Source of the DNA: Gammaproteobacteria bacterium | GTDB lineage: Bacteria > Pseudomonadota > Gammaproteobacteria > UBA4575 | Length of the DNA stretch: 64,000 nt | Direction: 5' to 3' | NCBI GenBank assembly: GCA_965221955.1 | Contig: CBDCTA010000029.1 | Location: 1 to 64,000 of the forward strand | In this document: positions 3,909 through 19,724 of the stretch, piece by piece | Position numbering within the stretch: position 1 is the stretch's first letter | Layout of the letters: each line of letters begins with the position of its first letter | Made by a program: the position numbers and the translations under genes | Notes under the pieces: generated by a model | What the model was told of the DNA's origin: nothing | Database searches by the model: none | Seen by the model: the letters and a program-made list of their open reading frames with translations, nothing else

Positions 3909-4306
3909 CGGACTCTACTGATGATTCAGATTCGCTCGATGTAAATAACTGGCATTTTACGCTCGGTCGATTACAGTCTGGGCGTACTCCTTATCCAGAC
4001 TTGCTAGCAAAAGAAATTCTTTATCACGAAGAACCCATGCCACAAAGTGTGCGTGAGTTTTTATCTGATTTTGTTCTAGCACGATTACAGCCCGATATAC
4101 GTAATCTGCCCTATGAACAATTAAATCCCGAAGAAAAGATTCGTTATCGAAGACATGCTGTGTATTTGGCATGGTATGGCTGCATGTACGGAACCGATAC
4201 ACGAAGCTGGTACGAAGTTAAAACTGAATTAGCTAACGAATTTAATAAAAGCGAAGAAACTATAGAAAAAGACATTCGTGAACGACGAAACAAACCCAAG
4301 TTCTAG
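3905..4306 (+). CDS. Hypothetical protein with possible C-terminal HTH
   Basis: ATGA overlap with the int stop; ELANEFNKSEETIEKDIR resembles an HTH. Confidence 0.65.
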   Translation: MTDSTDDSDSLDVNNWHFTLGRLQSGRTPYPDLLAKEILYHEEPMPQSVREFLSDFVLARLQPDIRNLPYEQLNPEEKIRYRRHAVYLAWYGCMYGTDTRSWYEVKTELANEFNKSEETIEKDIRERRNKPKF

Positions 4307-6636: not shown

Positions 6637-7435
6637 CTACATAGTAATCAATGAATCCAATTGTATTGATGCTTGGAAAGCTGCATCGGACTATTTATTA
6701 AATAACAATAAATCATGCTTTAATCTTCTTATTGGGATTGATAGCCCCACAGAATGTGAAGATAAATGGATTGAATGTTATAACCCAAAACTGTTTAACA
6801 TTTCATCAACTAGAAAAGGTGACGATTTAAGAGATGTTATTCACACAATATTCCCAGTTAAGCATTATCGAAACATCAAGAATAGAACAGAGCTTTATAG
6901 CAAGTATTTAAAGACCCATCTAAGAAGCTCTAAGATAAGCGGTAAAAAGTATGACCGTTGGGGAACATATTTCACGAGGCTAATATGGTTTGATACAATT
7001 GACCAAATTAAATTACATATTAATTCCTCTGATTCACTAGAACAAATTGGTAAGATCGTTAATAGTTATCCTGGGAGGCTTAATCAATTAGAAAGCGTTA
7101 TATCTGCGCTGACTAACTGGAAATCAAATGAAAAAGCAGCTTTGTATTGCCATATCTCTTCCCCCATGCTTGACACCTTACAACCTTTAGGTTTGCCTTG
7201 TCTTCAATTTATTCAGTTTACTAAAGCTAATGATGGGTCTATTGACTTAACTGCAGTGTATCGTAACCATGATTATTTCAACAAAGCTCTAGGAAACTTT
7301 ATTGGGCTTGGTCAGTTATTAGAATTCGTATGTAACGAAAGCAACAAAACAGCAGGAAAACTAAACTGCCATTCTATTAGAGCATATTTTAGAACATCAA
7401 AAACTGTATTGAGAGAATTATTGAATAATGAGTAA
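6629..7435 (+). CDS. Divergent thymidylate-synthase-superfamily protein
   Basis: GTYFTRL, NQL, catalytic PCLQ and YRNHD...GN motifs; ATG overlaps the upstream stop (ATGACTAG). Confidence 0.75.
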   Translation: MTSYIVINESNCIDAWKAASDYLLNNNKSCFNLLIGIDSPTECEDKWIECYNPKLFNISSTRKGDDLRDVIHTIFPVKHYRNIKNRTELYSKYLKTHLRSSKISGKKYDRWGTYFTRLIWFDTIDQIKLHINSSDSLEQIGKIVNSYPGRLNQLESVISALTNWKSNEKAALYCHISSPMLDTLQPLGLPCLQFIQFTKANDGSIDLTAVYRNHDYFNKALGNFIGLGQLLEFVCNESNKTAGKLNCHSIRAYFRTSKTVLRELLNNE

Positions 7436-8519
7436 ATCAAATAGTAAAAAGTTATTACAGCTGTGCGGGGAGGTTAAAAAATGTAAGCTATGCGCCAGGA
7501 TGAACAATAGCAAACGTGTTTTAAATGGCTCATGTGGGCCAATTAATGCTCAAGCATTTTTTATCGGAGAGGCGCCTGGAAGACTAGGTGCTGACGGATC
7601 TGAAATTCCTTTCCATGGCGATGTTGCTGGAGACAACTTTGAGAGATTGCTTAATCAAGTCGGGTTAAGCAGATATAACATCTACATTACTAATGCAGTT
7701 TTATGTAATCCAAAAGACGATGATGGAAATAACGCAACACCAAATTTAAATGAAATTAAAAATTGCACAAATTACCTGCAACAACAAATCGAGTTAGTTA
7801 ATCCAAAAATAATTGTTACTTTAGGCGCTACAGCATTAAAAGCTACATCCATAATTGAATCTCATAAAATTAGTCTAAAAAAAGATGTGAGAAAATCTTT
7901 CAATTGGTTTAATAGGAAATTAATACCGTTATATCATCCAGGACAAAGAGCAATGGCGCATCGAAGCTTCTTGAACCAACTTGCTGATTACCAGTTCGTT
8001 GCTGAAAAGATAAGAAGACTAAATAAGCCAGTTCGCAAGGTGTCTGCTTATATGAATGAGGACGTAGTCTCAATTGTAGACTACATTACACACTTAAAAC
8101 CTAAAGTTTCATATTTTTGGCTTCACAAAATATTTTATCTGATTGAATATGAAGCCACTAAACAATCTGGAAGTAAACTAACAAACTCATATTTTATCAG
8201 ACAAAAAGATGGGCCATATTGTACTGATTTAAATATCAAAAAACTTAAAAAATACTTTGGGGATCTCAGAGTTGAACAAAATAAAAATAAGCTCATTATT
8301 AGCAGAAGCGCGCCCGACCTATTTGGAAATAAAACAACGAATATTGGTTCACTTTCAAGAGATCAACGTGAGTTAATTATGAGGGTAATTGAAAGGCATG
8401 GTAACAAATCTGATTCACAGTTAAAGACTACTGTTTACCTTACAAAACCAATGAAAAAAATTATTAGACAAGAAGAAAAAAATATAAATCTATTTAATTC
8501 TCCTGTAGTTTTTAATTAA
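7428..8519 (+). CDS. Family-4-like uracil-DNA glycosylase fused to a Panacea/DUF4065-like domain
   Basis: CKLC Fe-S ligands, GEAPG, NAVLCNP and YHPG; C-terminal LHKIFYLIE...QKDGPY; ATG overlaps the upstream stop (ATGAGTAA). Confidence 0.8.
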   Translation: MSKSNSKKLLQLCGEVKKCKLCARMNNSKRVLNGSCGPINAQAFFIGEAPGRLGADGSEIPFHGDVAGDNFERLLNQVGLSRYNIYITNAVLCNPKDDDGNNATPNLNEIKNCTNYLQQQIELVNPKIIVTLGATALKATSIIESHKISLKKDVRKSFNWFNRKLIPLYHPGQRAMAHRSFLNQLADYQFVAEKIRRLNKPVRKVSAYMNEDVVSIVDYITHLKPKVSYFWLHKIFYLIEYEATKQSGSKLTNSYFIRQKDGPYCTDLNIKKLKKYFGDLRVEQNKNKLIISRSAPDLFGNKTTNIGSLSRDQRELIMRVIERHGNKSDSQLKTTVYLTKPMKKIIRQEEKNINLFNSPVVFN

Positions 8520-9084: not shown

Positions 9085-9106
9085 ACACAAATATATGGTC
9101 TACCCT

Positions 9107-9343
9107 ATGGTAGGTCAAGAAAAGCTACAGAAAAATTTTGGCAAGGTGCTTAAATCTGTGCGTACACAAAAATCCTATTCTCAGGAAGGATTGGCTTTAG
9201 AATGTGGTTTGGATCGGACCTATATATCTTTATTGGAACGTGGACTTAGACAACCCTCATTAGCAAGTATCTTTTCTCTTGCGCATGCGCTAGATATCAA
9301 GGCGTCTTCTTTGATTAAAAAAGTTGAACGGGAAGTAAGCTAA
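9107..9343 (+). CDS. XRE-family HTH regulator, R-M controller (C protein)-like
   Basis: FGKVLKSVR....SQEGLALECGLDRTYISLLERGLRQPSL. Likely leaderless start at 9107; alternative ATG at 9095. Confidence 0.85.
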   Translation: MVGQEKLQKNFGKVLKSVRTQKSYSQEGLALECGLDRTYISLLERGLRQPSLASIFSLAHALDIKASSLIKKVEREVS

Positions 9344-9638: not shown

Positions 9639-10292
9639 ATGTGCGGTAGACATTGGTTAGATAGTGCTCCAGTAATGCTTGAAGAGTGTTTTGATTTATC
9701 CATAAAACACTGGACGAAGCCACGCTATAACATCTCACCGCAATCAAATGTACTCAGTTTATTCCAAAGCGATACAAGGATTGAGATTACTGAGATGCAT
9801 TGGGGGCTTATTCCTCCTTGGGCTAAAGAAGGACAATTTAAAAGCCCTTTAATCAATGCACGTAGTGAAACCGTTTGGGAGAAACCTTCTTTTCGGAATT
9901 TAATAAAAAATCAACGTTGCATAATTCCTGTTTCAGGATTCTTTGAGTGGAAACGTGAAGGGAAAACGAAACAACCCTATGCCATTAAAGTAAACAATCA
10001 GCCATTAATGTTAATCGGTGGAATTTATCAAATCAGCAAAGATGGAGAGATGCAACATTGCATCGTTACAACCCCATCCAATTCTAAAATGGACCAAGTA
10101 CATGGTCGTCAACCTGTCATCCTTAATCTAGAACAAGCAAAGAATTGGATGACTTATGATAATCAAGACGATAAAGGTGACTTGGATGATCTAATGAACT
10201 CCTGCCCAACAGATTGGCTAGATATTTACCCCGTCAGTAACTATGTGAACAATGCTAGAAACCAAGGGCCAGAATGTATCGCAAGAATATAA
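9639..10292 (+). CDS. SOS response-associated peptidase (SRAP/YedK/HMCES family)
   Basis: N-terminal MCGR, RYNISP, WGLIPPW, LINARSET, GFFEW and HGRQP. Confidence 0.92.
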   Translation: MCGRHWLDSAPVMLEECFDLSIKHWTKPRYNISPQSNVLSLFQSDTRIEITEMHWGLIPPWAKEGQFKSPLINARSETVWEKPSFRNLIKNQRCIIPVSGFFEWKREGKTKQPYAIKVNNQPLMLIGGIYQISKDGEMQHCIVTTPSNSKMDQVHGRQPVILNLEQAKNWMTYDNQDDKGDLDDLMNSCPTDWLDIYPVSNYVNNARNQGPECIARI

Positions 10293-10693: not shown

Positions 10694-10963
10694 ATGACTG
10701 AGGAATGGCAACAACATTTACACAGTGCAGAATATGCGCTCGAAAATCTCTCACATGAGCAAGTTAGCACAGTTGCCAAGATGTTGGCTTTGGAAGTTGG
10801 AAGCTACCGAAGAAAGTATGGAGACTCAGAGCTTGAGGAAGCAGAACAATTTATCAACGTATCAGAAATGACAGATGATATGAAAGAAATCTTTGTAAAA
10901 GGAATGGAAGCGTTATTGGCTGTTGTTAGACAAATTGAAATGAGTGGTGCTGAGAGGCATTGA
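10694..10963 (+). CDS. Acidic helical hypothetical protein
   Basis: AAGGA RBS; 89 aa. Confidence 0.65.
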   Translation: MTEEWQQHLHSAEYALENLSHEQVSTVAKMLALEVGSYRRKYGDSELEEAEQFINVSEMTDDMKEIFVKGMEALLAVVRQIEMSGAERH

Positions 10964-10965
10964 AT

Positions 10966-10993
10966 ATGTCCGCTAACGACCCAAAGCGGACAT
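10966..10993. repeat. 28-bp palindromic site R1
   Basis: ATGTCCGCT-AACGACCCAA-AGCGGACAT, perfect 9-bp arms. Confidence 0.8.
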
Positions 10994-11004
10994 TTAACTA
11001 AGTA

Positions 11005-11274
11005 ATGAATAATAAGAGAAAGCCTTTCATACCAAAAAATTTACCTAAATCTTTGGTGATTAGCTATCTATCATTACTAATTGGTTTAGGATTTGGAGTG
11101 ATTGGATTTATTTCTGGATTCCTAGATTTAATTGTGATTAAAAACATTTGTGCTATTACATTCATTTGTAGTGTCATTGTTTTTCTTGTGAGTTATATAT
11201 TTCATACCGAGAGAACGGTCAGAGGGAAATATTCAAATATAGAATCTAAAGATTGGAAAGACCAGATTTGGTGA
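11005..11274 (+). CDS. Two-TM membrane protein, cassette-like
   Basis: 89 aa; fills the space between R1 and R2 almost exactly. Confidence 0.65.
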   Translation: MNNKRKPFIPKNLPKSLVISYLSLLIGLGFGVIGFISGFLDLIVIKNICAITFICSVIVFLVSYIFHTERTVRGKYSNIESKDWKDQIW

Positions 11275-11302
11275 ATGACCGCTATTGGCCGTAAGCAGAC
11301 AT
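11275..11302. repeat. 28-bp palindromic site R2
   Basis: ATGACCGCT-ATTGGCCGTA-AGCAGACAT, same arms and spacer length as R1. Confidence 0.75.
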
Positions 11303-11334
11303 TTGCATATGGTGATCGGATCACATACTCATTT

Positions 11335-11727
11335 CTACTTAACGATTCCGTAGACTGACAAAATCAATGCGATGATTGATAACGTAATCGGCAACCAAAA
11401 CTGAAATTTTCGCTCTGAAAGATGCGCAATTATGCCCTCTAACAGTGGAAAGTTGACTGCATGCAGATCTTCTCCTACCTTGAAAGCAAAAAGGTGAACC
11501 TTAGATCCATCATCTTGCGTGTAGTTGTATTGCTTATCTAAATCGTAGTAAAGGCGACCAAATAGAAGCTGAGGATCAGCCTTCAGTTGGTTCGCGATAT
11601 TCTCTACATCAATAGGCACATAGATGACCGAGCTTCGATTGAGTTTGTCTAATTTGTATTTGAGAAACTCATCTATATAGCTGTGATAGATTGTTTCCAA
11701 TATTTTCAAATTTGTAATTGGGCGCAT
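11335..11727 (-). CDS. Hypothetical protein with C-terminal TM anchor
   Basis: 130 aa with a hydrophobic C-terminus. Confidence 0.7.
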   Translation of the reverse strand: MRPITNLKILETIYHSYIDEFLKYKLDKLNRSSVIYVPIDVENIANQLKADPQLLFGRLYYDLDKQYNYTQDDGSKVHLFAFKVGEDLHAVNFPLLEGIIAHLSERKFQFWLPITLSIIALILSVYGIVK

Positions 11728-11751
11728 TATGAAAACGTCAAGCTTCTCAGT

Positions 11752-12288
11752 TTATAGGCGTCTACTTTTTGGAACATCATGTTTGAGCTGATTACTAGAA
11801 ATGCATTTACAAAAGTTTTTCATATCTATTTTACAATTATGCCAATCCTTACTAACAACTTCATATACTGTTACTTCATTAGAGATGTCTTGCACTGCGC
11901 ACTGTAGCAAACGGTGATTTCCATCTTTTACTACACGGACGCTACATGAATCGCAATAGAATGTAATTACATTTTTACTTCTAAAATAGTCATTAGTTGG
12001 ATTGAATCTAATTTCAGAAAATAGAGCAGGAAGTAATGAGAGTTCATGAAATGAGATTGGAAAAGCCTCCGTTGGTGGTGTTTCAAATGAACCGATATAT
12101 CTTGTGCGCTCCCTGTTTGTGCGCCATGTTGGATAAGCATTGCCCTCAATTAATTCTCTTGTTTGACTTGTATACTTAATATAGCTAGGCGCAACTGCGT
12201 CACAGCGCTCACTCAAATTTGCTGTGCATTGTTCTTTTATGGTAATTGAAACAAACTCCTTTTCGTCGATATTTTCAAGATTTTTCAT
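11752..12288 (-). CDS. Hypothetical protein with ParB/sulfiredoxin-like motif
   Basis: VVKDGNHRL matches the DGxHR motif. Confidence 0.55.
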   Translation of the reverse strand: MKNLENIDEKEFVSITIKEQCTANLSERCDAVAPSYIKYTSQTRELIEGNAYPTWRTNRERTRYIGSFETPPTEAFPISFHELSLLPALFSEIRFNPTNDYFRSKNVITFYCDSCSVRVVKDGNHRLLQCAVQDISNEVTVYEVVSKDWHNCKIDMKNFCKCISSNQLKHDVPKSRRL

Positions 12289-12354
12289 ATCTGGAAATTT
12301 TAAATATTAGATAGTTTAAATACATTTCTACTCGCTATTTATATAATGCCTGCA

Positions 12355-12381
12355 ATGTCCGCTTTGGGTCGTAACAAACAT
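12355..12381. repeat. Degenerate palindromic site R3
   Basis: ATGTCCGCTTTGGGTCGTAACAAACAT; the first 18 nt equal the reverse complement of R1. Confidence 0.7.
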
Positions 12382-12398
12382 TTATTCGTCAGAAAGCG

Positions 12399-12980
12399 CT
12401 ATATTTCTTTCTGAACAAAGTTAGCACTACCAGTTTGCATACTACTTTGAAATAGTTCGTCCTTATTAAATTCTGTCTTGTCCCAAATTATTTGGCATAT
12501 TTTTTCCACATTTTCCCGAGCACATTCGGCATTTTTATCGGTAGCATACTTCTGCCAATCAGCACGAAGCATTTCGCCCATTCGCTCGTCATAGTTGTCA
12601 ATTGAAAGCATCTTCTCGTCTCGTAGCAATTCGTTTTTACCATGCGCTACTTTATTCCGAATACCAAATATTTCTGGTGCGATACGCCATGGTGTCTCTC
12701 CAAAATTGGGTTCGATTTCCAACTTTTCACAAATGATATTAATTTTACCTTTTGGACTTAGGCGCTCTAGGTCACTCCATGATTCGAAAATTGCGTTTCC
12801 CACGTGGTTTAAAAAAGCTTCTAAGGTGAACGCAGTAAACACGATACTGCCAAGGAATTGATGATAAGACCCTACTTGGTTTTCTTTCCCGTGTTTCAAA
12901 AAGATTCTCGATGAGTGCCAATGTTCAGCATATGTAATGATTTCTCGTTCGCTAGTTTTATGAACTTTATTAATATTCAT
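12399..12980 (-). CDS. HEPN-domain protein (putative RNase)
   Basis: AFTLEAFLN helix and RNKVAH (RxxxxH). Likely start is ATG 12980 with a purine-rich RBS. Confidence 0.7.
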   Translation of the reverse strand: MNINKVHKTSEREIITYAEHWHSSRIFLKHGKENQVGSYHQFLGSIVFTAFTLEAFLNHVGNAIFESWSDLERLSPKGKINIICEKLEIEPNFGETPWRIAPEIFGIRNKVAHGKNELLRDEKMLSIDNYDERMGEMLRADWQKYATDKNAECARENVEKICQIIWDKTEFNKDELFQSSMQTGSANFVQKEI

Positions 12981-13281
12981 ATGCTCTCTTGTTTCCCTCT
13001 TGGAAATCTCTGCGTTGAGTAATGAGTATCTGTTCAAGTGTGTTGATCTTCCAGCCAATCAGGAAATCTATTTGTTTCTTTGAGTCGGTGATTGCAAAGT
13101 CGTAATCGGTGAAATCTTCTGTAATGAATTGGCGTGCTGCGGCCTTTGCGGATTTTTCTAATTCGATGATTCCAAAGATATCTGGATCAGCTGCTCGGAT
13201 ATGATCTACAACATCATCTATACGGGCTTGGCTTTCGTCTCTAAACTTTTGAACATTCCAAACGAGAATAGAGAAACTCAT
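12970..13281 (-). pseudogene. Truncated endonuclease/exonuclease/phosphatase (EEP) family gene
   Basis: ILVWNVQKF and DPDIFGIIE motifs present, but only 103 aa and the C-terminal catalytic motifs are missing. Confidence 0.6.
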
Positions 13282-13502: not shown

Positions 13503-16500
13503 ATGCGCATACGTGCTGTTCTGGTTTCTGTCGTTTTATTTCTTTTCACAAACTCAATGGTGCATGCCAATCTGGTGGCCTCGACACCGGGTGAGTTTTC
13601 AGTCAGCAGTACGGGTGCTGCAACTTACTCTGTTCCAATTGTTGTACCACCAGGTACAGCAGGTGTAGAACCCAAACTTTCCCTAAATTATTCCAGCCAA
13701 GGTCGAAATGGTTTGTTAGGTGTGGGTTGGTCCATTGGTGGTCTCTCAGTAATACATAGATGCCCTGCCAATTTAGTGAAAGATGGATTTATTGATGGCA
13801 TTGATTTTGATGACAACGATCGTTTTTGTTTAGACGGCCAACCTTTAATAGCAATCAATGGCACCTACGGTGCCAACAATACTGAATATCGTACCGAGAT
13901 TAACAATTTCTCCAAAATTATTTCCTATGGCAGCACGGGCAATGGTCCCGAGATGTTTAAGGTTTGGACCAAAAGCGGTGAGATTATGGAATATGGGTAC
14001 ACAACTGATTCCAGAATTAATCCCCCACTTGCAGATGGAACAACACAATCTGATGCACTTTGTTGGTTACTAAACAAAGTAACGGACACCGTTGGCAACT
14101 TTATGACAGTTACCTATTTTGAAGACACCTCAACTGGTGAAAACTATCCACAACAAATAGATTACACAGGTAATACAGGCTTAACTCCATACAACTCAGT
14201 AGAGTTCACATATGAGGCCAGAACAGATTCAGGAACGCGTTATCTTGCTGGGTTAAAAATGGAATCCACAAAACGATTGAAAACCATTACCAGCAAAGAA
14301 GGCGCAAATAAAGTAAGAGAATATAAATTAACTTATATTGAAACTACAGAAACTAACCAATCACAAATTTCATCTTTTCAAGAATGTGATGGTAGTGCAA
14401 ATTGTATTGCAGCTACGAACTTAACCACTCCTCATGAAGCAGATGGAACAACGACTCAGGCATTCCTGCAACAAGGTTCTTCACAAGGACCAGTTTGGCG
14501 AGATGGAAATGGGCATGATTCATTTTTAGGAGAATTTAATGGGGACGGACGCACGGATGTAGTACAGATCGCGCGTGATAACTATAACGCACAAACTTTA
14601 TTCACAAATACAAATGGATCCTTCACACAAGCTTTTCATGATACAACGAGTTTAATTTGGCGAACGGGTGATACAGGTTATGGAACCTTCCCAGGTGATT
14701 TTAACGGAGATGGCTTAACCGACTTATTACAACTTCAGCGATCAAATTATTATGGTCAAACTCTGTTAGCAGATGGAAATGGATCTTTTACACAAGCGCA
14801 CCTTCAAAATAATTATCCAAATGATGGATATTTTTGGGATGGTGGTCCCGTGAATAATACTGGAACAGATACCTACATGGGAGATTTCAATGGTGACGGA
14901 TTAACGGATGCTGTTCAAATTCAAAGAGATTACTACCAATCTCAAACGTTACTCTCAAATGGAGATGGAACGTTTTCTCGTGCGCATTTACAAGACAACT
15001 ACCCTACAAATGGAACAATTTGGAGAACTGGTACCGCAACAGATGCATATACAGGAGACTTTAATGGGGATGGATTAACAGACATTCTCCAGGTAATGGA
15101 AGGATATTATCAAGCACAAACCTTACTTTCGAATGGAGACGGAACATTTACTCAAGCGCATCTTCAAGATAACTATCCTAACGATGGTGTAATTTGGAGA
15201 GTGGGAAGTGCAAGTGAAATATTTACAGCAGATTTTAATGGAGATGGTCTAACTGACATTCTCCAAATTATGAAGGATTATTATTTAGCACAAACGTTAC
15301 TCTCAAATGGAGATGGAACTTTCACACGTGCACATTATCAAGATAATTATCCTAATGACGGCGTAGTTTATAGAGTTGGTAGTGGATATACGACTCACCT
15401 AGGAGATTTTAATGGCGATGGCATGTCTGACATTTTGCAATTGCATCGTACTCTATATGAAGGACAAACTTTATTTTCAAATGGTGACGGGACTTTCACT
15501 CGTGCACATTTGCAAAGTAACTACCCTAATGATGGTAACTATTGGGATGGCGGGCCTGAAAATAATACTGGTACTGATACGTTTGTTGGTGAATTCAGTG
15601 GAGATGGTTTGTCAGACGTATTACAAATTCAACGAGAATACTATTACGCACAAACACTTTTCTCGAACGGTAATCAATTTGAGTTAGCTTCAGCCATTAT
15701 CAATGGCCTTGGTGTTGACATAGAAATTGACTACACGCCAATAACAAACAACACCATTTACACCAAAGGCAGTGGTGCGAGTTTTCCTGAGATTGATTTA
15801 CAAGCCCCGATGTATGTGGTGAGTGAGTCTAGAACTAATAATGGATTGGGGTCAAATGAATTTAATACACTTACCTATGAATACGAAGGTGCAAAGGTAC
15901 ATGTACAAGGGCGTGGGTTATTAGGCTTTAGTAAACGTACGGTGACCGATGTCGATACCAACATCGTCATTGAAACTAACTATAAACAAGCGTTCCCATA
16001 CATTGGCCAAGTTGAATCAACCAAGACTACAGTTGATGGCACACTCGTTTCAGAAGAAAGTAACACCTTTGCTGCATTGGGTAACACTACAACGGGACCC
16101 GCGTTCCCTTATGTCGATCCTGCCGTGAGCAAAACCTATGACGTAAATGGCGGTGCATTACTGACTACCGTTACAACCGACAGCACCTATGATAGTTATG
16201 GCAATCCAACCAATATAACGGTGACGACTGCGGATGTAGGCATTGATACCTACACCACCACAACTTTAAATACCTATACCAACGATACAACGAAATGGCA
16301 TTTAGGCAGATTAACTCAAGCCGTCGTTTCCAAAACCGGTGGTGCACAAACTAGTCCATCACGAACTTCTACGTTTGAATATGATTCCACAAATGGTTTA
16401 CTCACCAAAGAAACCATTGAGCCCGGTGGTTCGTTTGAACTTGTTAAAACCTATACACACGATGGCTTTGGTAATCGCATCAGTGTCACGGAAAGTGGTT

Positions 16501-19500
16501 CAGGTATTACAAGTAGAACCACCACTACGAGTTATGACAGCAAAGGTCAGTTCCCAACGACGGTTACCAATGCATTGGGTCACAGCGAATCCCGTGAATA
16601 CAATGATCCTTACGGTAACGTCACAAAGTTAACTGGACCCAACTTATTAGACACCACTTGGGAATACGATTCATTAGGACGCAAGAGTCGTGAAATGCGT
16701 GCTGATGGGACCGAAACGAATATGACCTATGCATTTTGTAATGGTAGTTGTCCGTCACAAGTCAGTAGTTTGGCTTCATACAAAATCACAACCACTACTA
16801 CGGGTGCCGCCACCTCTATTGCTTATTATGATGCCGTAAACCGCGTCATTCTCACGGAGACCCAAAGCTTTGATGGCACCAGTGTGTATGTTGAAACAGA
16901 ATATGATGCACAAGGTCGAGTGGATCGAAGATCCAATCCTTACTTTGGTACTTCAACAACCTATTGGACCGACTACAGCTATGATGATTTAGGTAGAGTA
17001 ATCCAAGAAGATTCCCCGACTACAGGTTTAACCACGATGACTTACAGTGGTTTCATCACAACAGTTACTGTACATCGTGATCAAGGTGGAACAATTACTC
17101 AACTTGATAACAAAGAACAAACCAACAGTTTGGGCCAAACCCTATGGACCGAAGACGATAATAATAATCAACTTACCTTTGCCTATGATGCACAAGGTAA
17201 TCTTATTACGGTTACGGATAGTGAAGGCAACATCACTAGCAACACTTACAACCTCCGAGGCTTTAAAACCACCATGTCTGATCCTGACATGGGCGATTGG
17301 AAGTACGAATACAATGTACTGGGTGAGTTGACCGCACAATGGGATGCAAAAACCAGTCATACTGGTCCTGCAACGGTCACCATGAGTTACGACAAACTCG
17401 GAAGACTTATCAGCCGAACGGAAAATGAAGGAACGACTACATGGACCTATGATACGGCTACCAAGGGTAAAGGCAAACTTGCCAGTGTCTCGCATTATGG
17501 GGGTTACAGTCGAAGTCACACCTATGACAGTGTAGGCAGACCGAGTTCGACCACCACCGTCATTGGTGGCAGTAGTTACACCGCCACTACAACCTACGAT
17601 CCTTCAGGCAGAGTGGATGATGTGAGTTATCCAGGTAGCAGCAACTTCAAAGTTGATCACGTATACAACATACATGGCTATTTAGAAAAAGTACGTAATG
17701 CCAATAACACCTCTGAAGTGTTTTACACCGCACTCGCAGCTGATCAATTTGGCAATATCACCTCACAAACACTTGGAAGTGGTGCCGCTGCCATTACCAC
17801 CTTTAGAAGTTATCAACAAAACTCTGGACGTATCCAACACATTGATAGTGTCGTACAAGATTTAGAGTACACCTTTGACTCTATCGGTAATCTCACCCAA
17901 CGCAAAGATCATGATCAATCTGCACTTACCGAAGACTTTACCTATGACAACTTAAATCGACTTAAGAAAGCCGATGTATTGACAGTAGGATATGTAGACT
18001 TCACGTATGATGATCTTGGCAACATCACGAATAAGTCCGATGTAGGCAATTACACCTATGGTGCAGGTAATGCTGGACCGCATGCGGTGACCAGTGCAGG
18101 TGGAAACACGTACACCTATGACAACAACGGTAATCAAATCACAGGGGACGGTAAAACCATAACCTGGTCCTCCTTTAATAAGCCTACACAAATCACAAAA
18201 GGTAGTAGTACCAGTTCATTTACCTACGGACCGGATCGTGCGCGTTATTTACAAGTCACGACAGAAAGTTCAACGACCACTACTACAACTTACATTGGTG
18301 GCTTATATGAAAAAGTAGAAAAGACCGGACAAGCCACACAAGAGAAACACTTTATACGTGCTGGAAATCAGACCATTGCAATCTTTACGGATCGAAGCAG
18401 TGGCACCGATACTACTGAATACTTACATCGTGATCACCTAGGTTCCATTGACACCATTACCGATGCAAATGGAGCCATTGTAGAAAAACTTTCTTTTGAT
18501 GCGTTTGGTAAACGCAGACTCAGCAACTGGAACAGTGGTGTACCAAGCATTGTAAGCAACAACACGCGCGGTTACACCGGCCATGAGATGTTAGATGCGG
18601 TGGGACTGATTCACATGAATGGTCGAGTCTATGATCCGTTGCTTGGAAGGTTCATGAGTGCGGATCCTACGATGCAATTTCCTAAGAACATGCAGAATTA
18701 CAATCGGTATTCTTATGTACTTAACAATCCGTTGAGTTATACCGATCCAAGTGGATTCTTTTTGAAATCAATTAAAAAAGCTTTTAAGAAATTAGTTAAA
18801 GGAATTAAAAAAGTATTTAAGAAGATTGCACAGAATGAATTACTGAGTGCATTAGTTACGATAGGTGTCGGATTTGGTGTATTTACACTTGCGTCAAAGT
18901 TTATTGCAAGCAAAGTAATTGCTGGCGCGATAGGCGGATTTGCTGGTGGTTTTGTAGGGAGTGGAGGTGATATTAGAGCTGGTGTAATTGGAGGTTTATC
19001 TGGTGCGGCATTAGGCGCTATAGGTGCTAAATTTGGGAAACCACAATTATTTTCACCAAAACATTTTATTAAAATTGGGTTGCATGGTTTAGTAGGAGGA
19101 GCTGCATCTGCTGCTCAAGGTGGGAAATTTGGTAGAGGCTTTTTATCCGCGGGAGTAACTCAAGCGTTCGCTCCTGGTATTGACAATATTGATAGTGACA
19201 ACCTGGGAATAAGCCTAGAAAGAACTTTAGTTGCAGCAGTGGTTGGTGGTACAACATCAGAGTTAACTGGCGGTAAGTTTGCAAATGGAGCTGTCACCGG
19301 TTCCTTTTCAAGATTGCTTAATGATGAATACACCAAGCAATTAGCTGAGGATTTAAAACAGAAAATTGATGTATTACTTAAAATGTCAAATAAAGAGCTG
19401 AAAGTTGCATTGGGTGTCACTGCTTCAGATTTACCAATAGTAAAACATCAATTAGGGGTAATTTATGGTGCTGCGAATGGCCAACAATATATAGACACTA

Positions 19501-19724
19501 TTATAGAATTTGAAAAAGATTTAATAGAACTAGGAATTAGAGCTCCGATAACAAAAGGTGCAAAAAAATGGTGGAATATTTTTAGTATTCATGAACCCGA
19601 ATACGATTTTTCGGGTTTTAAAATTAATTGCAACGGAATTAATTGTGGAATTTTACATGAACCCACTGGAAAATTTACGCCAGCATGTAGATCCCAAAAT
19701 GCTAATGGATTTGCTTCGTGCTGA
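13503..19724 (+). CDS. Secreted RHS/YD-repeat polymorphic toxin (SpvB/TcB-like N-terminus, FG-GAP propeller, RHS core, unknown C-terminal domain)
   Basis: Signal peptide; GAATYSVPIVVPPG..GLLGVGW; seven GDFNGDG-type repeats; YD repeats; RGYTGHE..MNGRVYDP..NPLSYTDPSG core. Confidence 0.92.
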   Translation: MRIRAVLVSVVLFLFTNSMVHANLVASTPGEFSVSSTGAATYSVPIVVPPGTAGVEPKLSLNYSSQGRNGLLGVGWSIGGLSVIHRCPANLVKDGFIDGIDFDDNDRFCLDGQPLIAINGTYGANNTEYRTEINNFSKIISYGSTGNGPEMFKVWTKSGEIMEYGYTTDSRINPPLADGTTQSDALCWLLNKVTDTVGNFMTVTYFEDTSTGENYPQQIDYTGNTGLTPYNSVEFTYEARTDSGTRYLAGLKMESTKRLKTITSKEGANKVREYKLTYIETTETNQSQISSFQECDGSANCIAATNLTTPHEADGTTTQAFLQQGSSQGPVWRDGNGHDSFLGEFNGDGRTDVVQIARDNYNAQTLFTNTNGSFTQAFHDTTSLIWRTGDTGYGTFPGDFNGDGLTDLLQLQRSNYYGQTLLADGNGSFTQAHLQNNYPNDGYFWDGGPVNNTGTDTYMGDFNGDGLTDAVQIQRDYYQSQTLLSNGDGTFSRAHLQDNYPTNGTIWRTGTATDAYTGDFNGDGLTDILQVMEGYYQAQTLLSNGDGTFTQAHLQDNYPNDGVIWRVGSASEIFTADFNGDGLTDILQIMKDYYLAQTLLSNGDGTFTRAHYQDNYPNDGVVYRVGSGYTTHLGDFNGDGMSDILQLHRTLYEGQTLFSNGDGTFTRAHLQSNYPNDGNYWDGGPENNTGTDTFVGEFSGDGLSDVLQIQREYYYAQTLFSNGNQFELASAIINGLGVDIEIDYTPITNNTIYTKGSGASFPEIDLQAPMYVVSESRTNNGLGSNEFNTLTYEYEGAKVHVQGRGLLGFSKRTVTDVDTNIVIETNYKQAFPYIGQVESTKTTVDGTLVSEESNTFAALGNTTTGPAFPYVDPAVSKTYDVNGGALLTTVTTDSTYDSYGNPTNITVTTADVGIDTYTTTTLNTYTNDTTKWHLGRLTQAVVSKTGGAQTSPSRTSTFEYDSTNGLLTKETIEPGGSFELVKTYTHDGFGNRISVTESGSGITSRTTTTSYDSKGQFPTTVTNALGHSESREYNDPYGNVTKLTGPNLLDTTWEYDSLGRKSREMRADGTETNMTYAFCNGSCPSQVSSLASYKITTTTTGAATSIAYYDAVNRVILTETQSFDGTSVYVETEYDAQGRVDRRSNPYFGTSTTYWTDYSYDDLGRVIQEDSPTTGLTTMTYSGFITTVTVHRDQGGTITQLDNKEQTNSLGQTLWTEDDNNNQLTFAYDAQGNLITVTDSEGNITSNTYNLRGFKTTMSDPDMGDWKYEYNVLGELTAQWDAKTSHTGPATVTMSYDKLGRLISRTENEGTTTWTYDTATKGKGKLASVSHYGGYSRSHTYDSVGRPSSTTTVIGGSSYTATTTYDPSGRVDDVSYPGSSNFKVDHVYNIHGYLEKVRNANNTSEVFYTALAADQFGNITSQTLGSGAAAITTFRSYQQNSGRIQHIDSVVQDLEYTFDSIGNLTQRKDHDQSALTEDFTYDNLNRLKKADVLTVGYVDFTYDDLGNITNKSDVGNYTYGAGNAGPHAVTSAGGNTYTYDNNGNQITGDGKTITWSSFNKPTQITKGSSTSSFTYGPDRARYLQVTTESSTTTTTTYIGGLYEKVEKTGQATQEKHFIRAGNQTIAIFTDRSSGTDTTEYLHRDHLGSIDTITDANGAIVEKLSFDAFGKRRLSNWNSGVPSIVSNNTRGYTGHEMLDAVGLIHMNGRVYDPLLGRFMSADPTMQFPKNMQNYNRYSYVLNNPLSYTDPSGFFLKSIKKAFKKLVKGIKKVFKKIAQNELLSALVTIGVGFGVFTLASKFIASKVIAGAIGGFAGGFVGSGGDIRAGVIGGLSGAALGAIGAKFGKPQLFSPKHFIKIGLHGLVGGAASAAQGGKFGRGFLSAGVTQAFAPGIDNIDSDNLGISLERTLVAAVVGGTTSELTGGKFANGAVTGSFSRLLNDEYTKQLAEDLKQKIDVLLKMSNKELKVALGVTASDLPIVKHQLGVIYGAANGQQYIDTIIEFEKDLIELGIRAPITKGAKKWWNIFSIHEPEYDFSGFKINCNGINCGILHEPTGKFTPACRSQNANGFASC
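14520..15672 (+). repeat. Intragenic ~180-bp coding tandem repeats (FG-GAP blades)
   Basis: Seven ~57-63 aa units of the form G(D/E)FNGDGLTD.LQ...YY.QTL.SNGDGTF; boundaries approximate. Confidence 0.8.

Follow-up and report, generated by a model that had tools for sequence, protein, structure and literature searches.

A probable REP/BIME-like family of 28-bp palindromes that may punctuate accessory genes and delimit exchangeable single-gene cassettes in Proteobacteria

Three palindromic sites, R1 to R3, that bracket small genes in a 64-kb window of a gammaproteobacterial genome (the window being the whole stretch of DNA analysed) are members of a family of 28-bp palindromes whose joints, as comparison of genomes shows, are places where single-gene cassettes are apparently gained, lost and exchanged between strains and species. 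With slightly better than even confidence, we regard R1 to R3 as part of a REP/BIME-like family that punctuates accessory genes, with cassettes exchanged at the joints by host functions or by functions acting in trans. We infer the exchange from compared genomes and not from an excision or exchange event seen directly.

R1 (10966..10993, plus strand) is a B-type site with the loop AACGACCCAA; it is a perfect palindrome with 0 mismatches and lies 11 nt 5′ of cassette gene 1. The A-type site R2 (11275..11302, plus strand) has the loop ATTGGCCGTA and 2 mismatches, both in the arms, and forms the 3′ boundary common to two convergent cassettes. R3 (12354..12381, minus strand) is a B-type site in reverse orientation, a decayed 27-nt copy in which the gene-proximal arm and the loop are intact (19 nt the same as in R1) and the distal arm has decayed and is shorter by one base. 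Only R1 and R2 matched the pattern ATGTCCGCT-N10-AGCGGACAT at ≤3 mismatches in the window, where 0.03 matches are expected by chance and none of 100 shuffles gave two. A previous reading of the sequence by itself (hereafter the sequence-only reading) had reported three palindromes, and all were found, R3 inverted and decayed; the complementarity that it noted between R3 and R1 also held, but it extends over 19 nt from 12354 (12354-12372 against 10976-10994, 100%) and not over 18 nt from 12355. Folded alone, R1 forms a 9-bp hairpin (z −5.6), and R2 and R3 give no hairpin (z +0.6 and +0.7).

The distances between genes and sites given by the sequence-only reading (2, 11, 0, 32 and 17 nt) were borne out. 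An 89-aa flanking ORF (10694..10963, plus strand) ends 2 nt 5′ of R1; it has homologues in three congeners (G004, G002 and G012), and the similarity stops at R1 (10965). Cassette gene 1 (11005..11274, plus strand) encodes an 89-aa hydrophobic protein and runs from a B site to an A site, with its TGA abutting R2. Cassette 2 (11335..12288, minus strand) holds two ORFs, of 178 aa (11752-12288, minus strand) and 130 aa (11335-11727, minus strand), and runs from R3 (B) towards R2 (A), the 130-aa ORF ending 32 nt from R2. A further ORF (12399..13058, minus strand) ends 17 nt from R3. This arrangement, B>gene>A<genes<B, is that of two convergent cassettes placed inside an integrase-bearing island. 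Neither cassette had a DNA match at E≤1e-10 in the 25 relatives searched, and cassette gene 1 and both ORFs of cassette 2 were without a Pfam family; the labels “ParB-like” and “HEPN” suggested for genes here were left unconfirmed by Pfam, which gave no match at E≤0.01.

Across the genome (G000; other G numbers denote the genomes of relatives, and C numbers contigs), there are 153 copies at 45 loci, and a reversed control pattern gave 0. These copies, together with those in distant Proteobacteria, refute the initial view of the sites as a feature of the island. Each unit is a 28-bp palindrome made of 9-bp arms, ATGTCCGCT/AGCGGACAT, and a 10-nt loop, the loop being 10 nt long in 117 of 119 matches at ≤2 mismatches, and the copies fall into two loop classes (75 A and 78 B). 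Only 2 of the 153 lie inside ORFs of at least 150 aa, compared with 120±5 expected for random 28-mers, in agreement with the proposal that the sites fall at gene boundaries. The scatter typical of REPs, which had been named at the outset as an argument against a cassette system, is seen in 18 singletons and 14 pairs, but not in the arrays, in which 107 copies stand in groups of at least three.

The two classes differ in their placement relative to genes: an A unit is located at the stop codon of a gene and a B unit 12-45 nt before the start, and in 48 of 50 B..A intervals the longest ORF points from B to A. Within arrays, neighbouring genes are separated by a joint that begins with an A unit and continues through a fixed spacer to a B unit; joints are 101-112 nt long, with one of 87 nt. 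The spacer in the 26 A-spacer-B joints of G000 measured 44-46 nt (14 joints), 54-56 nt (11) or 31 nt (1), and the A-then-B order was strict in every short-gap pair. The sites bracket single-gene units, as originally described; the cassettes carry a single ORF, are co-oriented and promoter-poor and span 226-730 bp, and lone B...A cassettes end in half-joints. Judged by eye from the translations, the cargo includes acetyltransferase-like proteins, small membrane proteins and lipoproteins.

Gene-proximal arms are far better preserved than distal arms; genome-wide, the right arm of B sites matches the consensus in 53 of 78 sites and the left arm in 10 of 78, the same asymmetry as in R3. Compensatory arm changes were absent (0-6 both-side changes per position, Fisher p≥0.38), so no selection for a hairpin in itself is visible. 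At minimum energy, a joint folds into a single long, imperfect hairpin, with pairing between the outer arms and between the loop halves TTGG/CCAA (z −3.3 and −6.1); because tandem copies of one palindrome can always fold in this way, the joint fold does not constitute independent evidence, and no covariation supported either it or the single-unit fold. T runs come after many of the B units and terminal A units, and not after A units within joints. A consensus scan called no promoter or terminator at the joints, its 8-nt loop limit excluding 10-nt loops by design; a −35/−10-like pair seen by eye in the spacer is weak, and the scan called no promoter there. Rfam scans gave nothing at the sites or at element E, just chance-level matches (E 0.05-4). 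The flanks of the 153 copies lack an unpaired GTAG or CGTC tag, and TGTC, or CGTC in G038, belongs to the paired arm.

The arms, the loop cores and the order of A before B are found again in Alpha- and Betaproteobacteria and in further Gammaproteobacteria; the carriers, Lysobacter and Pseudoxanthomonas isolates among them, span marine Gammaproteobacteria, soil Alphaproteobacteria and Xanthomonadales-type genomes. Copy numbers are 68-189 in the complete genomes G001, G010, G014 and G019, and 1 in G013. G002 and G004 are also rich in the repeat; next to none are present in some close relatives, namely G013, of the same genus, and G016, G017, G018 and G023. The arms are letter-for-letter the same in genomes of 35-69% G+C from several proteobacterial classes, and this conservation, unlike that of lineage-specific REP families, points to a specific recognising factor. 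Spacer lengths are discrete, 17 or 63 nt in other lineages versus 45 or 55 nt in G000, and the units of other lineages form A-17 nt-B and A-17-C-17-B mosaics. The joints from these other lineages number 45. In E. coli, 3 of 5426 genomes had a weak match, one of which falls in a lambdoid prophage and has another site at a distance of 1.9 kb, and a plasmid search returned only 17 matches, weak and unannotated.

Gene content between the sites was found to vary among relatives and between two haplotypes, with break points at or inside the sites, as the sequence-only reading had anticipated. A single peptidase gene, together with its B and A sites, recurs in three array contexts that differ from one another, and the copies are similar only as far as the sites. 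Next to xerD/RDD, the space between genes is empty in G001, G019 and G022; in G010, in G014 and in each of two G000 haplotypes (4.4 kb and 12.8 kb) it is occupied by arrays, which differ. What sets these two haplotypes apart is exactly one cassette and one A site, and the crossover lies within that site; this crossover is the only one mapped, and it rests on just 28 bp of imperfect homology. In a comparison of C10 with C29:132-136 kb, the flanks are 97% identical, but the cassettes are unrelated and number three in C10 and four in C29. Contigs from read sets X1-X4 on the C23 array were low-depth and short only, and their apparent joints (22-38 nt on the shorter side) fall on repeated sites and are indistinguishable from repeat cross-matches; 6 sequencing runs in 2 studies carry the sequence, with no RNA run among those listed. 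Of the suggestion that recombination sites capture and shuffle cassettes, the variable content and the position of the break points are upheld, and site-specific recombination is a putative part.

A recombinase co-occurring with the sites, which the sequence-only reading had proposed to look for, was not found in G000 or its relatives. The only recombinases in G000 are XerC, XerD, one island integrase and one large serine recombinase, the last of which (C26:~86 kb) is not tied to the arrays. Tyrosine recombinase-like proteins account for 2 of 559 ORFs near sites (117 foreign stretches), and no recombinase was enriched near the sites elsewhere. The best IntI (TIGR02249) score in G000 was 83 bits against a cut-off of 265, in line with the claim that these are not canonical integron sites. 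IntI exceeded the cut-off in 6 of 41 relatives, unrelated to copy number, and in 2 of 24 family genomes (G013 and G015); it is absent from the complete genomes G001, G010, G014 and G019, and in G015, the sole high-copy relative with IntI, the 20 kb around intI (G015:C29:1-20000) are free of sites. RAYT/Y1 (PF01797) had no match in G000 and was present in 1 of 14 congeners and 4 of 24 family genomes. Other mobile-element models were rejected for G000: IS200/IS605-type ends (no Y1, no TnpB), palindromes as insertion targets of a group II intron or of IS110 (neither an RT nor an IS110 transposase present) and a DDE/rve transposase (none). Terminal inverted repeats with target duplication were rejected as well, there being no sites with other loop lengths and hence no “empty” 24-bp target. 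The dif candidate of G000 (C4, minus strand) has 4 mismatches to the gammaproteobacterial consensus; the dif/pdif geometry first ascribed to the sites agrees in length, but the A and B arms are unlike those of this candidate.

In the REP/BIME-like reading, a B unit closely precedes a small gene or a pair of genes and an A unit stands at the stop codon, and A, fixed spacer and B make up the ~101-112 nt joint between array neighbours. Cassettes would be exchanged by recombination within or between conserved joints, through host functions, i.e. short-homology or hairpin-stimulated recombination after DNA uptake, or alternatively through a trans-acting factor encoded away from the sites; neither an integron integrase nor a RAYT would carry out the exchange. 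Several observations weigh against this reading. The identity of the arms across classes is unlike that of ordinary lineage-specific REPs, and plain homologous recombination predicts no bias by which gene-proximal arms outlast distal ones. Moreover, the homology used at the crossover, 28 bp and imperfect, is little for exchange of the RecA type, compensatory changes are lacking in the arms, and two hallmarks of the described REP superfamilies, the tag and the RAYT, are missing.

GTAG- and CGTC-tagged REP superfamilies are described in PMC3733652. Like REP and BIME elements, the sites are short (28 bp) extragenic palindromes in high copy number, are of several unit types joined by fixed linkers into mosaics and stand mostly downstream of or between co-directional or convergent genes; as in the account of CGTC REPs in PMC3733652, they have no dedicated transposase, 9-bp stems and A-T at the first two stem positions. 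Unlike the REPs of that account, they carry TGTC/CGTC inside the stem in place of an unpaired GTAG/CGTC tag and have a loop fixed at 10 nt versus 2-5 nt (PMC3733652). They also differ from REPs and BIMEs in having no RAYT, arms identical across classes instead of lineage-specific, and a strict polarity, B before and A after the gene, with units that bound cassettes of variable content. A second likeness is to PeSLs, the promoter-early stem-loop regulatory cassettes of T4-type phages (PMC2839356, PMC4122927). As reported for PeSLs in PMC2839356, hyperplastic regions hold small non-essential ORFs flanked by composite, conserved motifs between genes, and insertions, deletions and replacements between close relatives end in the motifs, with no dedicated recombinase needed. 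However, PeSLs belong to phage genomes and the present sites to bacterial chromosomes, the counterpart of the strong sigma-70 promoter, which PeSLs combine with a terminator stem-loop, is here a weak resemblance in the spacer, seen by eye and not called by the scan, and mini-circles belong to the PeSL side of the comparison.

A dedicated, integron-like but IntI-independent site-specific system, in which a folded attC-like joint or heterospecific A/B sites would be acted on by a putative trans recombinase, is possible, though we consider it rather doubtful. As in integrons and CALINs, the arrays consist of small, co-oriented, mostly promoter-less single ORFs with cargo typical of integrons and content that varies between strains, and after each ORF comes a joint of ~100 nt that is an imperfect palindrome, within the attC range of about 57-141 nt. 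Such a system would fit the long hairpin of the joint, the strict A-then-B order with discrete spacer lengths, the conservation of arms and loop cores whatever the G+C content and the one crossover inside a lone 28-bp site; proximal half-sites kept beside decaying distal ones are expected if half-sites travel with the cassette. Against it, G000 holds no candidate enzyme, IntI does not co-occur with the sites (nor does the intI of G015 have one nearby), recombinases are not enriched around them elsewhere, any tandem palindrome pair would be expected to fold as the joint does, and covariation is absent for both folds. There is, in contrast to integrons, no attI/Pc platform, and the joint consists of two palindromes conserved in sequence, whereas attC sites share a structure but vary in sequence; here, single cassettes end in half-joints. 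The pdif/dif sites of Acinetobacter plasmids, as presented in PMC6449649 and PMC13141974, resemble the present ones in that 28-bp sites flank small accessory modules and two forms alternate, but the present sites are chromosomal, number in the hundreds, have the same sequence in both arms and bear no likeness to the XerC/XerD arms of this genome's dif candidate. The wider version, a pan-proteobacterial cassette system in which heterospecific A/B sites, alike in their arms and unlike in their cores, flank the cassettes, the joint folds like attC and a putative conserved trans factor exchanges cassettes between arrays and genomes, we hold to be unlikely; such A/B exchange, if true, would be a natural recombinase-mediated cassette exchange.

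A role at the RNA level only, with A as a 3′ stabiliser or terminator and B as a 5′ hairpin of accessory genes that are expressed individually, and with break points that are incidental to an intergenic position, appears improbable. The strict position of both units relative to genes and the T runs agree with it, as does the description in PMC3733652 of REPs as generally downstream of genes and thought to be RNA elements. However, neither compensatory nor G-U-biased changes are seen in the arms, R2 and R3 give no hairpin, and the consensus scan called no terminator at the sites, although its loop limit excludes them. An RNA role also leaves unexplained one cassette that retains both sites in three contexts, the crossover inside a site and the letter-perfect arms across classes. 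True attC clusters served by an IntI supplied from elsewhere (CALINs) are very improbable: array organisation and cargo do resemble sedentary integron arrays, and the family has IntI in two genomes, but IntI is rare and missing from the high-copy complete genomes, G013 has IntI and a single copy, G015 has no site near its intI, lone cassettes end in half-joints and not in whole attC sites, and the 9-10-9 arms do not, by eye, appear to carry the attC core triplets.

In Neisseria, dRS3/RS mosaics and minimal mobile elements comprise short inverted repeats in intergenic mosaic clusters where gene cassettes differ by strain; exchange there reportedly proceeds by way of the conserved genes on either side, following transformation, and dRS3 is also a target of phage integration. 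The sites described here are likewise short inverted repeats in mosaics at intergenic places where cassettes differ, but their sequence is different. dRS3 corresponds to CGTC-1 in the classification of PMC3733652. A full-text search of the literature returned no described non-integron, palindrome-bounded cassette system, and one may still be in print. If the joints mediate exchange, they would provide a large unannotated route for small accessory genes within and between Proteobacteria, one that needs no integrons, transposases or phages; letter-perfect arms at 35-69% G+C call for a recognising factor, which makes the question testable. The 28-mer also offers a simple search key for flexible-gene hot spots in metagenome-assembled genomes, and metagenome assemblies break at such arrays. 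In G000, arrays were found at contig ends and haplotypes were assembled twice.

The family pattern, ATGTCCGCT-N10-AGCGGACAT, occurs as an exact palindrome at R1 (10966-10993) and with two arm mismatches at R2 (11275-11302), confirming both sites where the sequence-only reading had placed them, and the 64-kb window contains no further match at ≤3 mismatches. A shuffled window is expected to yield 0.03 matches, and two matches were obtained in 0 of 100 shuffles. R3 (12354-12381) is, as proposed, a copy of R1 in reverse orientation, decayed and 27 nt long; its opening run, previously given as 18 nt from 12355, is 19 nt from 12354 onward and is perfectly complementary to 10976-10994. The distances reported from the sites to start and stop codons were correct. 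A Pfam search assigned no family to the ORFs between and beside R1-R3, which leaves the labels 'ParB-like' and 'HEPN' without confirmation. R1 and R3 carry the B loop and R2 the A loop (classes described below), giving the layout B>gene>A<gene,gene<B with one A site common to two convergent cassettes. Three relatives (G004, G002 and G012) carry homologues of the ORF upstream of R1, with similarity that stops at 10965, one base short of the site; for the genes enclosed by R1 and R3, a DNA search of 25 relatives found no match.

Directly upstream of the sites lie a uracil-DNA-glycosylase-superfamily and SocA/Panacea fusion (7428-8519, + strand), a small HTH protein (9095-9343, +) and an SRAP peptidase (9639-10292, +), and the 437-aa frame of the island integrase is at ∼3.3 kb. 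A 2073-aa ORF with SpvB, FG-GAP and RHS-repeat domains (13503-19724, +), which starts 1.1 kb downstream of R3, is built like a polymorphic or Tc-like toxin.

The sites had been taken as a feature of the element in the window; instead, the source genome (G000; 2.69 Mb in 29 contigs, completeness 96.6%, contamination 4.3%), of which the window is C29:1-64000, holds 153 copies at ≤3 mismatches, spread over 45 loci (107 in groups of at least three, 28 in pairs and 18 alone), and the reversed control gave 0. Their location at gene boundaries held genome-wide, with 2 of 153 copies inside ORFs of ≥150 aa compared with 120±5 for random 28-mers. The loop was 10 nt in 117 of the 119 matches at ≤2 mismatches, and two loop classes were distinguished, A (ATTGGCCGAA; 75 sites) and B (AACGACCCAA; 78 sites). 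When genes were called as longest ORFs, without a gene finder, the longest ORF ran from B to A in 48 of the 50 intervals that a B and an A site enclose, starting 12-45 nt past B and ending at A or within a few nt of it. Neighboring cassettes in arrays are separated by A-spacer-B joints with spacers of 44-46 nt (14 joints), 54-56 nt (11) or 31 nt (1) that contain a conserved GGTTGGAWTCAAT motif; the largest arrays (C5:676-8626 and C23:10825-23303) have 23 sites each. Cargo read by eye included small membrane proteins, lipoproteins, and acetyltransferase-like, peptidase-like and stress-protein-like products, the Pfam scan of cargo having covered ORFs of the window only. At C22:320050-320743 and C11:2700-3273, predicted cassette ORFs start at the opening ATG of the palindrome and begin with MTAIGRK, which may be an artefact of choosing the longest ORF.

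Close genomes differ in the cassettes that these units enclose, the variation in gene content between sites that the sequence-only reading had set as a check, and break points fell at or inside the units at every place tested. One peptidase gene, together with its B and A sites, is present at both C5:749-1535 and C26:69642-70429, where similarity begins in the B loop and stops directly after A; another species has a homologue of 80% identity that is likewise enclosed by a B and an A site, in a different array. The space from an RDD-family gene (beside xerD) to the next core gene is empty in three relatives (G001, G019 and G022). In G010 it spans 2.8 kb and includes 5 sites; in G014 it spans about 6 kb and includes a single site and a single copy of a companion element (E). 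The source genome has two versions of it, of 4.4 kb (contig C14) and 12.8 kb (contig C23). Because their flanks are 95-100% identical in translated segments, we read C14 and C23 as two haplotypes. At one end the difference between them is precisely a single 1031-bp cassette and a single A site. The lone C23 site there joins the left arm of one C14 site to the loop start found in the other, which places the one crossover mapped in five left-arm bases, CCGCT. Likewise, C10 and C29:132-136 kb have flanks, E and the first B site in common at 97% DNA identity and enclose 3 and 4 unrelated cassettes, respectively.

On sequence identity, we read the same loci as assembled twice with different cassette arrays (C14:1-12300 and C23:7000-28000; C10:1-5500 and C29:131000-138000); xerD is among the doubled loci in two copies, and the arrays stand at or close to contig ends. 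The doubling probably reflects strain heterogeneity of the source sample.

Element E, ∼65 nt long, bounds many arrays and single cassettes as inverted copies, such as the pair flanking the array on C23 (10745-10810, +; 23319-23384, −). It gave 62 nhmmer matches in the source genome, the first on C29 at 72535, and none in the window or near R1-R3. An alignment inspected by eye shows two short hairpins with a common WGGA loop and stems that vary between copies with pairing kept. In many cases a half-site, consisting of left arm, loop and then AG, comes before E, and its type matches that of the full site after E. 'Empty' inverted pairs with one decayed site inside (C22:45725-45933 and C29:575430-575617) look like a ∼200-bp MITE.

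Within the genus, the pattern was found in 14 of 14 genomes (1-211 copies); elsewhere in the family five genera had 12-189 copies, one had 2 and four had none, and one genome of another family had 45. Control patterns gave 0-5 matches in relatives. A wider scan requiring exact arms, with one genome per species, returned at least 117 stretches. Most of the matches listed came from Alphaproteobacteria (Pseudolabrys, Hyphomicrobiales, Sphingomonas, Rhizobium), others from Lysobacter, Pseudoxanthomonas, Dyella, Luteimonas and a betaproteobacterium, and still others from individual MAG contigs with the labels Acidobacteriota, Verrucomicrobiota, Chloroflexota and Flavobacteriales, which may be binned wrongly. 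G+C of the listed stretches ranged from 35% to 69%, and E was found only in low-G+C relatives (2 of the 117 stretches among the matches listed). Listed high-G+C stretches had the same A-B order, with gaps of 17 nt (18 pairs) or exactly 63 nt (21 pairs; 27 units of 62-64 nt were collected), and most of the listed long gaps held a third palindrome. No short-gap pair ordered B then A occurred among the matches listed, and in 31 of 39 listed B-A intervals with a dominant ORF that ORF ran from B to A.

Joints in Alphaproteobacteria (e.g. L046, L035 and L135) often have three palindromes 45 nt apart, with loops that contain TTGGCAC, a G run such as TTCGGGGGTAA, or TTTGACCCAA, and 17-nt linkers with TGCACTGCAC ends; loops of a hybrid type (TTGGGCCAAT/A) are frequent there too.

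Copy number, extragenic placement and mosaic build liken the family to REP/BIME elements, as does the absence of a dedicated transposase, a trait of CGTC-tagged REPs (PMC3733652). The family lacks the tag and RAYT hallmarks, and its conservation across classes and strict B-gene-A polarity are unusual. With moderate confidence, we favour a reading in which host functions or an unlinked factor would exchange cassettes at the conserved joints, on the model of the modular shuffling mediated by PeSLs in T4-type phages (PMC2839356).

An alternative is a dedicated integron-like or cassette-exchange system with a putative recombinase of its own; no other reading accounts easily for the invariant arms and conserved gene-proximal half-sites. 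Gene-proximal arms are kept: the left arm of A sites is consensus in 39 of 75, the right arm of B sites in 53 of 78. Distal arms are decayed, with the consensus in 23 of 75 right arms of A and 10 of 78 left arms of B, and this asymmetry is repeated in the 26 joints and in R3. The only tyrosine recombinases in the source genome are XerD (on both haplotype contigs), a XerC-like protein and the island integrase; there is one large serine recombinase, and searches found no Y1/RAYT, reverse transcriptase, IS110 transposase, rve or TnpB. RAYT occurred in 1 of 14 congeners. Near the sites in the foreign stretches, 117 among the matches listed, ORFs resembling solute-binding proteins by eye formed the largest cluster (32 ORFs from 21 stretches), and 2 of 559 listed ORFs were tyrosine recombinase-like. 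No co-occurring recombinase of the sort envisaged earlier emerged from the source-genome searches, from IntI and RAYT in relatives or from ORFs near foreign sites. The proposed dif/pdif likeness holds for length only: the best dif candidate of the source genome (C4, position 89618 of the reverse-complemented contig, minus strand) is canonical, with 4 mismatches to the gammaproteobacterial consensus, and is unlike the A and B arms. We regard a dedicated system as a tentative, minority possibility.

Roles of the units in RNA only appear improbable. R1 folds in silico (z −5.6) and R2 and R3 alone do not, and among the 153 sites both-side changes in a pair were rare (0-6 per position) and unenriched (Fisher p≥0.38). 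A whole joint is predicted to form one long hairpin, with outer arms, then TTGG with CCAA, then inner arms paired (z −3.3 and −6.1), which is not independent evidence, since two copies of one palindrome in tandem can always adopt such a fold. That the units are true attC sites or a CALIN is very hard to credit: the source genome has no integron integrase (best 83 bits versus a cut-off of 265), and IntI exceeded its cut-off in 6 of 41 relatives, including one with 152 copies and no site within 20 kb of intI (G015) and one with 1 repeat copy (G013).

A weak match was also found in 3 of 5426 E. coli genomes. On the chromosome of strain EC43, two family-like palindromes 1.9 kb apart (L167:2112-2139 and 4004-4031) bracket three hypothetical genes of small size close to hokD and ydaT, within the accessory region of a lambdoid prophage.
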